NCBI GenBank assembly: GCA_964016885.1
Contig: OZ024749.1
Coordinates: 42,036,001-42,100,000 of the forward strand
Direction of reading: 5' to 3'
From: Eledone cirrhosa
Taxonomy: Eukaryota
Length of the DNA: 64,000 nt
The notes under the pieces were generated by a model. That model was not told the DNA's origin. It saw nothing but the letters and a program-made list of their open reading frames with translations, and made no database searches. Position numbers and translations under genes: made by a program. Shown here piece after piece: positions 4,767-14,319 of the stretch; within the stretch, counting starts at the first letter, position 1, and each line of letters begins with the position of its first letter.

Positions 4767-6516
4767 GAAGGGGTCGATTGTCTAAAAAGTTTCGCCAATC
4801 CCTGGTCAAATACTTGCTCCTTCATCCTCTCATTCACCCTTCTCCACACTCACCTTATCTCATTTAATGATAACAATAAAAACACGAACAAATTGATCAA
4901 TTTAACCCAAGGTTATACAAAAAAACAAAAACACTTTTTATTTTGTTATGTCTTTTAATTTGTATTGTTTTGTTTTAAATTTCTATAAAAATGTCAAAAT
5001 ATATATAAATAAAAAATATAAAGAATTGTAAAAAAATAGTTGAACGATATCTCTGTGACTGTATATGATTTCTTGTGGAGATTTGCTTGCTGTTTCTTTA
5101 GCGGTTGTTAGGGGCTTTTTTTTTTATATAGGGCCAGGCTGCTAGCCCGACGCCTAAACTTCCTCCTTTCTTGACCAGGCTTACAACTGGCCATGGAAGA
5201 TCGACCATACTGGCAGAGGCTTGCTGCCTTGTGTACCCCAAAGTGTGGGAAGACTTAAGAGAATAAGTATATTATTTACTAAATAAATGTTACATTTGTA
5301 AACTGCTTCAGGGTATTTCTAGATGATTGTGTCATTCTTGGCCGACCAACCCTCTTCTAATGCTTATGTTTGTGTTTGTATCTTAAATATACACTGAAGT
5401 TATATTTGAAATATAACTAAAATTATGTGTTAAATATAAACTAAGTAATGTCTGTCTTAAGTTATGTTCTAACAGAAAAAAAACTGTGTTAAATTAAAAA
5501 AGAATCGTGTTAAATAAAAGAAAATTGTGTTAAATAAAAAAAATGTTAAAATAAATATTAAAAAATAAATTAACAAGAAAAACTGAAAACCCTTTTTTTT
5601 CTCGAAGGAACTTCATCAATGAAAAGAAAAATGTTGAGAAGTCAGAGTGGGGTAGAGTGGTGGGAGATAACCTCTCACCACCACCAACACCCCTCCTTTA
5701 CCCACACTCCACCTCATTCTTCCTCCTACACTCTTAAACCCCACACCCACACCGCCGCCATTTTTTCTGTAAGCATTGTCATTAAAGTTTTTTTTTTTCA
5801 ATTTTTTAATTTTTATTTTTACCACATCAGCCAAAACTTTCAACTTGGATTTGTTTCCAGTATTCTATGAATAAAGGTAACTGAAACTTTAAACAGTGTT
5901 CTTTTTAGTACATATATATATGTATATAAGTGTGTGTGTGTGTGTGTATATATATAAACAATGTTGTCTCTGAATAAGAAAACACATCACTAGAACAGCC
6001 ATTCATATATATATGTGTATATAAGTGTGTGTGTGTGCATGCATGCATATGTGTTCATATATGCACAGTGTTCAGTGTTCATATATGTGTACAGTGCTCA
6101 GGTGCACTACAACTCATCAAAAGTGTATGTATAGTACATAGGGTAATGTACAAACGTCAGGAAAATGAACTGCATGAGTCATGATATACACGTGTGCATG
6201 TGTATGGAAGGGGTACATCAGGTGTAGTTTTGTCGTATTTCGGGAAGCATGAGGGTTTTAAAGGATGCAGTTTCTCGGCAGCTAACAACTGAAGCAGGTA
6301 GTTTGTTCCATGCTTCAGCAACTCTGAGCGTGAAAAAATGTTTACGAAAGTCATGGGAGCTGTGCTGTTTTCTGATTTTGAAGGCGAAATGGTTAATAAC
6401 TTTGTGGGTGTTTACCAAGTCCATTGCCAGACGTCGGAGCTTCAATGAATCCATGCCCAGGGAAGAAAGGCATTCAGAGTATGGTAGATCCCTGGATGTA
6501 GGGTATGCGCTTGGTT
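4767..6516 (+). repeat. Left arm of a large inverted duplication
   Basis: Reverse complement of 12503-14319; identical ORF-track peptides on opposite strands (5619+ and 13205-). Confidence 0.97.
6070..6516 (-). mobile_element. CR1-clade LINE 3' fragment inside the left arm
   Basis: PYSERLSSLGMDSLKLRR...RKHFFTLRVAEAWNKLP, a CR1 ORF2 C-terminus. Confidence 0.85.
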
Positions 6517-6639
6517 TCTAAATTAACATATATAGAAACGTAATGAGAGTGAGGTAACATACGAATATATGTTATCTCGCTTTCTTGCCGTTTCTATATA
6601 TTTTTTTTTTTAAATAAATAAAATTTTACCTATAAGCAC

Positions 6640-6807
6640 GACTACTCTACTCAGTAGAATTGCGGCCTCGCGTGGTGATGCATGTAGCAGTTCGGACTTT
6701 GTCAACTACTTATTTATGGTGTGACCATTCTATGTGTCTGAAGATCGAATCGTTGCGAGGGCAGTCGGGATTATTTGCATCCTGGACCGCGCGAGCAGTC
6801 CTTTTTT
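6640..6807 (+). ncRNA. Candidate structured small RNA ending in a T6 run; family unassigned
   Basis: CpG-rich island in AT-rich DNA; long bulged stem joining both ends; TATA-like sequence upstream; TTTTTT at 6802-6807. Confidence 0.4.
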
Positions 6808-7568
6808 GCTCTAAATTTGATTAGAGTTATCTCCCATCATTTAGAGTTACTTCCCCTTTATGGAATTCTTTTTTTTATAATTTTGGATATTGTTGTTCAT
6901 GTGAAGAGGTATGGGATATTTTGCCGTGTATAAAGAGACTAAACCTTCTCTCTATACACATACATTTCATTAGATATCATTTTGAATATTGTGTTCATGC
7001 GAAGAGGTATTTTATGTGGCTTTCTGGCACTTTTTCACCCACTCGACATATGCTTTCTTTTAAATTAAAAAAGAACTAGACATACAAATAGTGTTACTCT
7101 TCTAAAAATCGTTCTAAGAAACTAAAATTTCTCTAAATTAAACCGGTGACATATTTCGATTTAAACCGCTTCTTTGAAAAATATCATGTAAAGAGGCGTG
7201 TTTTAATTGCCGTGTATACACTCGCAGATATTCTTGAGACACAAAAATACGTTTTACTATTTCTCTTTTTAGAGACATACATCTAAAAACATGTACTTTC
7301 TACTAAGAAAAATATATAGATCTTTTCTATACAGGAAAATACTTTTTCTTTTTTATTCTTAGAAAGAAAACCACTATATACAGCTACATTTTTATTATCT
7401 TCTCTATTTCTTTCACAACGAAGCTTCATTTCTCGCACACATATGTCCTCTTGTACGTATGTTTTCCAACCTGAATAAAAAAAGTTAAAAACTTGGATTT
7501 TATTAATTTTCGGAAGTAAAGTAAAGCTTTATTTTATGTTGAAATATTTTCTCTTTATTTCCCTCCAT

Positions 7569-11810: not shown

Positions 11811-11939
11811 CATACATATATATCGTTTGAGAAACGGTATTTTACACATATATATATGTACAAAATACTTTCACGTGAAAGGCTAATAAAGATTGGCTAT
11901 TTTATTTATAGTCAATAGCCTGTCTTCCATCACTATGTA

Positions 11940-12292
11940 GTTTTCTTCGGTGGTGGCAGTTGCAGGATGTCCAGACCTTGGGTTATCTTAAGTCTCTCCC
12001 TTCCACTCCTAAATTCAGCTGTCCACATTTGCACTGTTGATAAAGCTGAAGCGTCATCCATTAATCAAGTAACCATATCAGCATGAATGTCTTTGGGAGC
12101 CAAACCCTTTTTCTGAAGGTACTTCATTACACCATGATGCCCAATTTTGTCTATTTTCAAAAAAAGTCACTATTAGTTACTTTTGAAGTCTTCTTTGAAC
12201 AGTCAAATGTCAGTTTACCAGGAAAGAAACAATGTAGTTATTAATAAGAACAGTTGAAATTAATGCATACAAGATTTCACAGCTCTAGCATC
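11940..12292 (-). mobile_element. mariner transposase N-terminal (HTH) remnant
   Basis: DKIGHHGVMKYLQKKGLAPKDIHADMVT*...LSTVQMWTAEFRSGRE...PRSGHP; related terminal sequence at 51640-51945. Confidence 0.8.
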
Positions 12293-12502
12293 ATTTCCTA
12301 TATATAAATATATATAGAGAGAGAAAGGAAGGTACAAACTCAACTGCAATGCCAAGCAGTTTCGACTTGTGTTCAGCAAGCTTTTTCAAGGGTGTAGTAG
12401 ACTCTGCATTTTCCCATGCATTGAGTACCCTCATGATTTGTGGTCTCTCCAGTCTTAGCATTGTAGATTCTCTCTCTCTATATATATATATCAGAGACGT
12501 GC

Positions 12503-14319
12503 AACCAAGCGCATACCCTCCATCCAGGGATCTACCATACTCTGAACGCCTTGCTTCCCTGGGCATGGATTCATTGAAGCTCCGACGTCTGGCAATGGAC
12601 TTGGTAAACACCCACAAAGTTAGTAACCATCTCGCCAACAACAACCCTGAGCACCTTTTTGATCTCCATGTGTCTAACACACGTGGACATGCCTTCAAAA
12701 TCAGAACAGCTCCCATGACTTTCGTAAACATTTTTTCACGCTCAGAGTTGCTGAAGCATGGAACAAACTGCCTGCTTCAGTTGTTAGCTGCTGAGAAACT
12801 GCATCCTTTAAAACCCTCATGCTTCCCGAAATACGACAAAACTACACCTGATGTACCCCTTCCATACACATGCACACATGTGTATATCATGACTCATGCA
12901 GTTCATTTTCCTGACGTTTGTACATTACCCTATGTACTATACATACACTTTTGATGAGTTGAAGTGCACCTGAGCACTGTACACATATATGAACACTGAA
13001 CACTGTGCATATATGAACACATATGCACACACACACACACACACACTTATATACACATATATATATATATATATATATATGAAATGGCTGTTCTAGTGAT
13101 GTGTTTTCTTATTCAGAGACATTGTTTATATATATACACACACACACACTTATATACATATATATATGTACTAAAAAGAACACTGTTTAAAGTTTCAGTT
13201 ACCTTTATTCATAGAATACTGGAAACAAATCCAAGTTGAAAGTTTTGGCTGATGTGGTAAAAATAAAAATTAAAAAATTGAAAAAAAAAAAAACTTTAAT
13301 GACAATGCTTACAGAAAAAATGGCGGCGGTGTGGGTGTGGGGTTTAAGAGTGTAGGAGGAAGAATGAGGTGGAGTGTGGGTAAAGGAGGGGTGTTGGTGG
13401 TGGTGAGAGGTTATCTCCCACCACTCTACCCCACTCTGACTTCTCAACATTTTTCTTTTCATTGATGAAGTTCCTTCGAGAAAAAAAAGGGTTTTCAGTT
13501 TTTCTTGTTAATTTATTTTTTTATATTTATTTTAACATTTTTTTTTATTTAACACAATTTTCTTTTATTTAACACAATTCTTTTTTAATTTAACACAGTT
13601 TTTTTTTCTGTTAGAACATAACTTAAGACAGACATTACTTAGTTTATATTTAACACATAATTTTAGTTATATTTCAAATATAACTTCAGTGTATATTTAA
13701 GACACAAACACAAACATAAGCATTAGAAGAGGGTTGGTCGGCCAAGAATGACACAATCATCTAGAAATACCCTGAAGCAGTTTACAAATGTAACATTTAT
13801 TTGGTAAATAATATACTTATTCTCTTAAGTCTTCCCACACTTTGGGGTACACAAGGCAGCAAGCCTCTGCCAGTATTATCGATCTTCCATGGCCAGTTGT
13901 AAGCCTGGTCAAGAAAGGAGGAAGTTTAGGCGTCGGGCTAGCAGCCTGTCCCTATATAAAAAAAAAGCCCCTAACAACCGCTAAAGAAACAGCAAGCAAA
14001 TCTCCACAAGAAATCATATACAGTCACAGAGATATCGTTCAACCATTTTTTTTACAATTCTTTATATTTTTTATTTATATATATTTTGGCATTTTTATAG
14101 AAATTTAAAACAAAACAAAACAATACAAATTAAAAGACATAACAAAATAAAAAAGTGTTTTTGTTTTTCTGTATAACCTTGGGTTAAATTGGTCAATTTG
14201 TTGTTGTTATTGTTATCATTAAATGAGATAAGGTGAGTGTGGAAAAGGGTGAATGAGAGGATGAAGGAGCAAGTATTTGACCAGGGATTGCCCAAACTTT
14301 TTAGACAATCGACCCCTTC
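12503..14319 (-). repeat. Right arm of the large inverted duplication (includes a CR1 fragment at ~12495-12990 on +)
   Basis: Reverse complement of 4767-6516. Confidence 0.97.

Follow-up and report, generated by a model that had tools for sequence, protein, structure and literature searches.

What kind of event places 1.75-1.8 kb of near-identical DNA in inverted orientation on either side of a 6-kb spacer, and does the spacer itself take part in it? We examined this in a 64,000-nucleotide stretch of the Eledone cirrhosa genome (assembly GCA_964016885.1, contig OZ024749.1, positions 42,036,001 to 42,100,000, forward strand; hereafter, the window). A BLAST self-comparison recovered the two arms exactly where the initial annotation had placed them, 4767-6516 against 14319-12503, as the strongest self-match of the whole window (1,828 columns, 93.3% identity with gaps, 34 mismatches, E=0). 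Global alignment gave 28 substitutions over 1,732 aligned positions plus 14 gaps, chiefly in homopolymers or microsatellites apart from a left-arm deletion of 57 nt, and the homology was prolonged past a further left-arm deletion of ~25 nt by ~14 nt (left) and 38 nt (right), to 4753/14357; the description of the arm differences as length changes, scattered substitutions and deletions thus holds. The arms are single-locus host DNA, not transposon ends. The outer arm has three genomic matches, namely both arms and 175 bp on contig C10, in agreement with the earlier reading of the arms as ordinary mosaic DNA, and the target-site duplication that had gone unseen was again not found at three candidate end pairs, where the longest was 0-1 nt.

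Because each of the four arm ends lies in a repeat that can be dated, the direction of copying can be read without an outgroup. At the right arm both ends lie in intact older repeats: the inner end within a LINE fragment, which we take to be CR1-like, that runs on 12 nt past 12503, and the outer end inside a dispersed short repeat. At the left arm both ends cut older repeats, and DNA was lost at the insertion site. All seven of the other copies examined of the short repeat outside the left arm extend beyond the cut point, with pairwise continuation of ~260-350 nt in eight of the nine pairs reported, and most copies of the repeat-family segment at the inner end (segment A) reach further outward than the cut there; the missing remainders were absent from the 40 kb searched, from 10 kb upstream to window position 30000. 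Microhomology is short throughout: the inner junction has GTT, the outer junction C and the 57-nt deletion GGC. Short junction microhomology, an intact nearby donor and a deletion at the recipient site, as looked for in templated insertions, are therefore all present, and together with the repeat continuity they indicate that template switching likely produced the left arm as a copy of the right. Thus, of the two options offered initially, the local palindrome was the correct branch. The ancestral state of the locus is read from repeat continuity and should be taken as provisional, the evidence at the right inner end being 12 nt long. At the rate of 0.09 per 25 My given in parts of PMC13282606, the 1.6% divergence between the arms makes an age of about 2 My likely for the left-arm copy.

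Could the foldback instead be two haplotypes of one locus set in inverted order by mis-assembly? Divergence of 1.6% falls within the range of allelic differences, no contig bridging the two inner junctions was demonstrated among the public contigs listed, and three of the sequencing runs (X1-X3) possibly come from the assembly's own sample. Nevertheless, the two arms differ in their flanks and deletions, and a public contig from run X4, which carries a second sample code, spans the left outer junction (4196-4825) with 0 differences, while another public contig bears the right-arm letter at nine of nine diagnostic sites, so that both arm versions, and in X4 the left outer junction together with right-arm letters, are present among public contigs. 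In run X2, arm sites reach a summed depth of 22-26, against 9-13 in individual contigs of the spacer and of PRCP; this fits two arm copies, depth not being a strict copy number. We consider mis-assembly extremely improbable.

The flanking genes are convergent, as annotated, with Peptidase_S28 exons on the plus strand ending at 4393 and Pkinase and PBD exons on the minus strand at 33229-43594, so that the kinase exons found and the right arm are ~19 kb apart. The left-arm copy lengthens the DNA open to the 3' end of PRCP and adds an AATAAA that is a possible PRCP poly(A) signal. The initial annotation had also envisaged double-stranded RNA; this would need one transcript across both arms, since PRCP and right-arm minus-strand RNAs have the same sense and would not pair. 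Run X4 seems to represent spliced RNA, as one of its contigs departs from the genome 4-5 nt before the acceptor of the last PRCP exon. At 98% likeness its contigs cover the spacer patchily (among the pieces listed, three are exact, of 151-192 nt), and a 962-nt arm contig compared with the right arm showed no run of A>G or T>C changes; all of this is neutral on editing and read-through because contigs drop rare variants and are strandless. The right-arm letters in X4 may stem from a long minus-strand RNA or from an inverted spacer.

The spacer, in turn, is not gene cargo. It is ~83% repeat-derived, and consists mostly of one decayed copy of a dispersed family characterized by a 33-bp hairpin (Table 1). 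Within it, self-BLAST bore out the proposed nested foldback (7927-8159 with 8710-8854, and 7569-7600 with 9031-9062), whose halves are 70-84% identical and which recurs in many family copies. As to structured RNA, the CpG-rich stretch 6660-6800 folded no better than shuffled sequence (z -0.3 and -1.5) and was rejected, and the hairpin at 6525-6604 folded far better (z -8.9 as RNA, -5.9 as DNA). The supposed Cys-rich exon proved to be a terminal-exon-like segment found across the family, in which the 22-codon frame itself is uncertain, reaching the same stop in ~12 of 21 copies, being frameshifted in others and having no match in Pfam. Among 88 frames compared with Pfam (8 from the spacer and 80 from family loci, drawn from 374 candidate frames plus those of the window, with some family copies outside the scan), there was no family-specific domain and no transposase; the only matches were two fragments of RT and a single hit below threshold. 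An Rfam scan of 4000-15000 yielded 13 matches, every one far under its curated cut-off (best, 31 bits versus 93). A palindromic hairpin at 11695-11813 was considered as the family's other end and ruled out as a separate, genome-wide repeat. A Penelope-like origin was also set aside: the Penelope-like element that neighbors some loci has no sequence in common with the spacer, and its ends occur in controls too.

Table 1 Features in and around the inverted arms (window positions; empty cells, nothing assigned).
Position	Strand	Feature	Remarks
4201..4393	+	Last coding exon, PRCP-like carboxypeptidase	Peptidase_S28, E 7e-13; 3' region enters left arm
4549..4752	-	Short repeat with sharp A|CTAG end, presumably Helitron-like	Cut by left arm at 4752; matches across the genome (40 scored candidates)
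4753..6516	+	Left arm	Inverted copy derived from 12503-14357; internal deletions of 57 nt and ~25 nt
4875..4880	+	AATAAA	Left arm only; right arm AATAAC (substitution at 4880)
6514..6516		Inner junction	GTT common to CR1-like fragment and family end; 3-nt microhomology
6514..7919	+	Family segment A	Contains hairpin, CpG-rich core (6605-6800) and more conserved blocks; 65-83% identity to other copies
6525..6604		Family hairpin	~33-bp stem; 11-nt loop deletion in window copy; 61 distinct copies aligned
7926..8160	+	34-bp minisatellite	Left half of nested foldback
8268..8455		High-copy short repeat, apparently SINE-like	Inserted near family centre; 29-48 hits per bin in controls
8456..8704	+	Family centre c	Splice-acceptor-like TACAG, 22-codon Cys-rich frame 8548-8613, TAATAAA; 21 distinct copies aligned
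8710..9062	-	Remnant of segment A's inverted right half	Minisatellite 8710-8854; 8975-9062
9300..9950		Second degenerate minisatellite	Precedes segment B at another locus too
10330..11530		Family segment B	High-copy insert 10331-10542; conserved CCAAT 11463-11467; adjoins segment A at other loci
11627..11823		Palindromic MITE-like repeat	Separate, genome-wide; hairpin 11695-11813
11856..12293	-	Mariner-like transposase fragment	High-copy; weak Mos1 HTH match on homologous copy
12300..12475		Palindromic short repeat, high-copy	Distinct from 11627..11823 repeat
12490..12985	+	LINE 3' fragment, presumed CR1-like	Extends 12 nt past right arm's inner end
12503..14357	+	Right arm	Original; both ends in native context
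14281..14567		Dispersed short repeat, presumably a hAT-like end	Of 40 scored genomic matches, 38 lie elsewhere; many cross 14319 and 14357

A 20-mer of the family has 72 genomic matches, of which 47 lie on C15, C20 and C23; the seven largest contigs, which make up 66% of the genome, have no match. Family copies have long inverted halves with tandem subrepeats, and different copies have captured repeat fragments in common. Their ends are ragged: across 16 pairs, none with an evident target-site duplication, the inverted match runs on for anything from 10 to 2,302 nt beyond the hairpin, and the junctions of 89 copies are scattered, without sharp shared termini. The stem is ~33-35 bp long with a loop, within the pre-miRNA size range, a perfect 27-bp form existing besides the window form, and its wobble types, 14 G-T against 16 A-C, are not biased toward either strand; the centre is also covered by related run X4 contigs at 88% likeness. 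A minus-strand CTAG sits immediately beyond the hairpin, and one junction type alone among those compared ends there. Seven junctions with distinct flanks, the window's included, lie 11-30 nt beyond the core motif of the stem, and in the window the stem begins ~10 nt from the inner junction of the 6-kb spacer. The family behaves like a core duplicon, with a shared core, changing flanks and chromosome-biased expansion. No description of it was found in the portion of the literature searched, a body that excluded Repbase, Dfam, MirGeneDB and most subscription papers.

Of 20 family loci, 9 carried an inverted repeat (at least 450 bp and at least 88% identity), compared with one among 20 controls (Fisher p 0.008). 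Some family palindromes exceed 20 kb, and the assembly has 100%-identical ones on C23. At two other loci, flanking DNA just outside the hairpin was apparently copied across, 2.3 kb containing a LINE on C12 and 194 nt on C8; there, long homology was available from the family's own arms, whereas the first switch in the window had none. As the family is nearly confined to smaller chromosomes and often sits within large palindromes, it may act locally as a source of rearrangements.

Several observations run counter to a role of the hairpin in promoting such events. The clustering of junctions may reflect AT-rich alignment ends or a kept element end, and related family copies are not independent. 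Rearrangement-rich small chromosomes might both house the family and form palindromes. The stability of the window hairpin is ordinary (-18.1 kcal/mol as DNA versus a family median of -17.6), 11 of the 20 family loci have no inverted repeat above the cut-off, and family hairpin, core or centre sequence lies in only five of the nine inverted repeats.

With these points weighed, we posit that the left arm probably arose as an inverted copy of the right arm by a template switch beside the hairpin, and that the family probably promotes palindromes at many loci. This hairpin-promoted model is supported by the junction microhomology, the same polarity of copying on C12 and C8, the enrichment of inverted repeats and the seven junctions near the stem. 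Replication would have stalled, or the DNA been cut, at the hairpin or at the family's internal foldback, after which resection would have stripped the family's outer end and the far portion of the neighboring repeat. The broken end could then have annealed through 1-3 nt to the opposite strand downstream, on a template ~6 kb away, copying 1.85 kb with two internal jumps before being rejoined. Microhomology of 1-9 bp with templated insertions is the signature of template-switch repair as passages of PMC11293582 describe it. Elsewhere, the same process plus arm-to-arm conversion would lengthen and homogenize palindromes, and in so doing would account for the core-duplicon-like spread of the family with changing flanks.

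Whether a transposition enzyme rather than repair machinery initiated the copying is a natural question. If the family were a non-autonomous Helitron type, Rep could have nicked the hairpin end and made an aberrant copy, and the lack of target-site duplications, the ragged ends, the shared captured fragments and the minus-strand CTAG directly outside the hairpin all fit, as does a Helitron-like end on the repeat cut at the outer junction. A family match also lies within 30 kb of the edge of 7 of 17 Pif1-like helicase fragment clusters, against 0.47 for random placement. However, all seven linked clusters are on C23 or C25 and of common ancestry, with the match 5' of the helicase in each and 3' as well in one only; 28 of 30 helicase loci have no spacer sequence within 1.5 kb, the other two holding short family pieces; and a single junction type ends at CTAG. 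Terminator bypass is the standard model of Helitron capture in the parts of PMC6431247 that treat it, and such read-through would leave the flank uninverted. We regard this Helitron-driven origin of the copy as unlikely. More remote still is the notion, put forward initially, that the entire 9.6 kb is a composite foldback transposon with the arms as termini and the spacer as cargo. Long inverted arms do enclose a multi-copy interior, and sections of PMC6431247 report composite elements between foldback transposons in Drosophila, but the outer arm matches little beyond the two arms, the right arm's outer end lies within an unrelated repeat, and target-site duplication and transposase were absent from the end pairs and frames scanned. 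With single-locus arms, the left copied from the right, and a largely repeat-derived spacer lacking a family-specific Pfam domain, this claim fails, and we give it a very small probability.

Breakage without any transposition enzyme could also have taken other routes. Staggered breaks are a known origin of duplications at inversion ends, as parts of PMC4965816 set out, and an inversion of this kind could have flipped the spacer and duplicated the arm, with later deletions removing the left native junction; the left arm has indeed undergone deletions. That model predicts one native neighbor per copy, whereas the right arm has two and the left none, and the remainder of the 4549-4752 repeat is neither at the far end of the spacer nor in the 40 kb searched, making the scenario quite improbable. 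Equally doubtful is ordinary break repair at a random site, with the hairpin incidental and the palindromes a long-standing element structure whose copies gene conversion keeps similar. Many copies share the inner foldback, which is old, the window copy is 65-83% identical to its relatives, and a young long inverted repeat is missing at 11 of 20 family loci, all as expected of such a history; the junction's position ~10 nt off the stem, the similar junctions at other copies and the flank copies adjoining the hairpin on C12 and C8 speak against it.

As a single foldback, the locus is of an ordinary repair-product kind, if unusually legible, and the hairpin family outweighs it in importance. A core that resides in palindromes, drags host flanks along and is absent from two thirds of the genome would be a testable cause of duplication and rearrangement on small chromosomes, a role already described for primate core duplicons, and the 33-bp hairpin is a specific target for measuring fragility, processing and polymorphism. 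Tentatively, and as a possibility only, the family could be an invertebrate core duplicon in which a sub-kilobase hairpin core, restricted to smaller chromosomes, repeatedly breaks at its stem and copies host flanks into inverted arms, the resulting palindromes (3 to >20 kb) spreading as composites, possibly with Helitron Rep nicking and with a spliced small-peptide or hairpin-RNA gene at the core. If so, the window would be a snapshot of a single flank-capture step.

Among known systems, FoSTeS/MMBIR events as covered in parts of PMC11293582 resemble the window event in the reverse copying of a nearby donor, 1-3 nt of microhomology, internal microhomology deletions and DNA loss. They differ in that the window event is germline and evolutionary, 1.8 kb long, present in two sample codes, and tied to the hairpin of a repeat family instead of to a long homologous repeat pair. 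The sea-urchin TU elements and Galileo, like Drosophila FB and its composite TE, are foldback TIR transposons, and these share with the spacer family long inverted halves, internal tandem subrepeats and a short centre, whereas the family has no sharp termini, target-site duplication or found transposase, and the 1.8-kb arms are host DNA. Non-autonomous Helitrons are similar in lacking target-site duplications, in their ragged ends, captured mosaic and hairpin by CTAG, and in that one subfamily adjoins tandem helicase-fragment arrays, with no such link at the window locus; in contrast, known Helitron terminator stems are shorter than the ~33 bp found here, and the family's ends are rarely at CTAG and include head-to-head and tail-to-tail arrangements. 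Drosophila staggered-break inversions likewise leave an inverted duplicate either side of a segment and no target-site duplication, unlike the window, in which one copy, the right arm, holds both native junctions. Lastly, palindromic GOLGA8 is reportedly counted beside LCR16a/NPIP as a primate core duplicon. The spacer family has a core of <1 kb in units of 3-28 kb, is invertebrate, carries a conserved long hairpin, and offers an exon-like centre but no demonstrated protein-coding gene or selection; in these respects it departs from the primate examples, yet it shares with LCR16a/NPIP, as portrayed in portions of PMC7419210, a recurrent core with flanks that vary, subfamilies biased toward particular chromosomes, and deletions where copies insert.

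The foldback is genuine. Its inverted arms, as the initial annotation had described them, form the strongest self-match of the window (4767-6516 against 14319-12503, self-comparison of the whole window), differing by 28 substitutions over 1,732 aligned positions plus 14 gaps in an arm-to-arm alignment; if a deletion of ~25 nt is allowed for, the match reaches outward as far as 4753 and 14357. That annotation was also right about the convergent flanking genes and the lack of a target-site duplication (TSD), none being found when the foldback ends were compared. Both arm versions are present in contigs of public sequencing runs: X1-X3 are possibly the assembly's own sample, and X4 comes from the same study under a second sample code. 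One X4 contig crosses the left outer junction with 0 differences, and another carries the right-arm letter at 9/9 sites.

Features of the foldback spacer and its surroundings (window positions; spacer parts from left to right)
Feature	Position	Strand	Remarks
Inverted repeat, 78 nt, 95%	3745-3822 and 3979-4056		last PRCP intron
Similarity to end of Penelope-like terminal repeat	4031-4097		last PRCP intron
PRCP (Peptidase_S28) gene	ends 4393	+	left flank
Hairpin	6525-6604		leftmost spacer part; folding z −8.9 as RNA, −5.9 as DNA
CpG-rich core	right of hairpin		folding not unusual
Further conserved blocks, then 34-bp minisatellite	right of CpG-rich core		
Spacer family centre	after 34-bp minisatellite		splice acceptor, 22-codon Cys-rich frame, TAATAAA
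Remnant of inverted right half	right of centre		
Second minisatellite, then segment B	right of inverted-half remnant		
Two MITE-like repeats and mariner-like fragment	right end of spacer, after segment B		
PAK-like (PBD-plus-kinase) gene	identified exons begin ~19 kb to right	−	right flank
Strongly self-complementary long AT-rich microsatellite tracts	30200-31610 and 56019-56531		

The arms are host DNA, one copied from the other. Their outer 740 bases have no matches besides the two arms themselves and 175 bp on contig C10, which upholds the earlier view that they are not transposon ends. At the right arm, a CR1-like fragment extends 12 nt beyond the inner end, and the outer end sits inside a dispersed repeat (14281-14567); the left arm truncates, at 4752, a repeat family that carries on in 7/7 other copies examined and, at 6514, the spacer family, which in most copies reaches beyond this point. 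(The labels CR1, hAT-like, SINE-like and Helitron-like denote resemblance.) The missing parts of the truncated repeats are absent from 10 kb upstream through window position 30000, and DNA was therefore lost where the copy landed. Microhomology is 1 nt at the outer junction and 3 nt at the inner one, and a 57-nt internal deletion is flanked by GGC at each end.

The spacer, previously read as cargo-rich, is instead a decayed repeat, with ~4,960 of its 5,986 bases (summed intervals) matching other loci or minisatellites. Pfam gave nothing specific in 88 frames, which were selected among the window's own frames and 374 candidate frames of the family. The segment at 8547-8625 and its family copies resemble a terminal exon with conserved acceptor and TAATAAA; its frame, CPAYKVICCVVCRNKCEWRSFC, stops at the poly(A) signal in ~12/21 copies, and several X4 contigs match related copies.

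A 20-nt core motif of the spacer family has 72 exact genomic matches (reversed control, 0), 71 on contigs C7-C26 and the last on a contig that is unplaced, with none on C1-C6 and C28 (1,991 of 2,996 Mb), unlike the adjoining mariner-like and MITE-like repeats, which match those contigs freely. The hairpin-arm motif has 115 matches, mostly on C23 among the 100 matches listed, and at several loci segment B adjoins segment A, which comprises hairpin, core and further conserved blocks. Copies fall into chromosome-biased subfamilies, including one on C15 (8-kb units, 92-97%) and one on C22, C23 and C25 (13-kb unit, ~86-99%), whose units each contain shared decayed LINE pieces; contigs of X5, a second organism code, are related to the family at a likeness of at least 88%. 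The C22/C23/C25 stem (e.g., L082:2526-2825) forms a 27-bp inverted repeat, perfect or nearly so, around a 12-nt loop, folding to as low as −31 kcal/mol as DNA, and the largest palindromes belong to this subfamily.

Palindromes of 3 kb to >20 kb, with arms 83-100% identical, occurred in the first 23 family regions, which were picked partly for paired hits. A fairer count took 20 of the 38 remaining core-motif loci, omitting nine on C23, one unplaced and eight alternate entries, and compared them with 20 controls at a distance of 500 kb: inverted repeats with a minimum of 450 bp and 88% identity were found at 9/20 family loci versus 1/20 controls (p 0.008). Five of the nine include hairpin, core or centre; among the rest are a Penelope-like palindrome and a Helitron-internal repeat, the latter also in the control. 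An older inverted centre, under this cut-off, is retained at 5/5 C15 loci. Over 16 hairpin-to-hairpin pairs, inverted matches end at distances of 10 to 2,302 nt beyond the hairpin; they share no common end, and no TSD is evident. On C12 and C8, one side's flank appears to have been copied to the opposite side immediately beyond the hairpin, as in the window; a count over 89 copies gave seven distinct junctions located 11-30 nt beyond the core motif of the stem (the window's at 22), a number weakened by relatedness and AT-richness. Four C23 palindromes of 15-28 kb from one shared unit (G000:C23:9383826-9404268, 11786001-11813902, 17593877-17608604 and 7363465-7390477; arms 92-100%) carry 88-bp minisatellites close to the centre and, more distally, long microsatellites, and some C23 palindromes form alternating head-to-head and tail-to-tail arrays.

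We do not assign the family to foldback transposons, Helitrons or miRNAs. Among the 150 best of 6,289 candidates, a Pif1-like helicase fragment forms tandem arrays on C18, C20, C23 and C25, and at 7/17 helicase clusters a family match lies no more than 30 kb from an edge, versus 0.47 expected; all seven are of the C23/C25 subfamily, with the match mostly 5' of the helicase. At 28/30 helicase loci no spacer sequence occurs within 1.5 kb, and CTAG is present outside the family hairpin, where only a single junction type terminates. Large tandem arrays of this decayed Helitron-like helicase fragment lie at C25:26.43-29.09 Mb, C23:8.61, 15.19-15.29 and 17.44-17.57 Mb, C20:26.8-27.35 Mb, and C18:25.0 and 34.9-35.8 Mb; that on C25, which runs + at 26.47-28.01 Mb and − at 28.64-29.09 Mb, looks like an inverted array on the megabase scale whose outer edges hold family copies. 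A Penelope-like element that lies near nine family regions is a separate family. One copy (L132:2000-6000, G000:C25:16965200-16969200) has an inverted 315-bp terminal copy (99.7%), a hammerhead-like core and coding sequence that is presumably RT and GIY-YIG-like; a Penelope palindrome (99%) lies at L142:4346-5367.

The family's hairpin has a pre-miRNA-like geometry; 1,295 of 1,559 stem cells are Watson-Crick, and no strand bias was found among their wobble types. By its behaviour, X4 would be spliced RNA. Its sequence is unbroken from the last PRCP exon to position 4825 or beyond, which is 73 nt inside the left arm, where an AATAAA at 4875 is present in that arm only, and its contigs span 13192-14057 and 14427-16500. 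Cover of the latter interval is almost continuous, ~17 kb past the last PAK-like exon found, and could reflect either an unannotated transcript or a 3' UTR of great length. Since PRCP RNA from the left arm and minus-strand RNA from the right arm have the same sense, a duplex would form only if transcription read through the 6-kb spacer or if the opposite strand were transcribed.

As to origin, a staggered-break inversion leaves each copy one native neighbour, as described in PMC4965816, and is disfavoured on that ground: the right arm is embedded at both ends and the left arm interrupts repeats at both. We hold it most likely, with moderate confidence, that the left arm arose by template switching next to an old repeat's hairpin, as a copy of the right arm. 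With a rate of 0.09 substitutions per 25 My (PMC13282606), the 1.6% arm divergence would correspond to roughly 2 My, unless conversion reset the clock. In the literature searched we found no description of a hairpin-cored, small-chromosome, palindrome-rich family; it works like a core duplicon. The event itself is of a known kind and works like templated insertion, and template-switch repair, as set out in PMC11293582, fits the arm junctions, the internal deletion and the DNA loss at the left arm.
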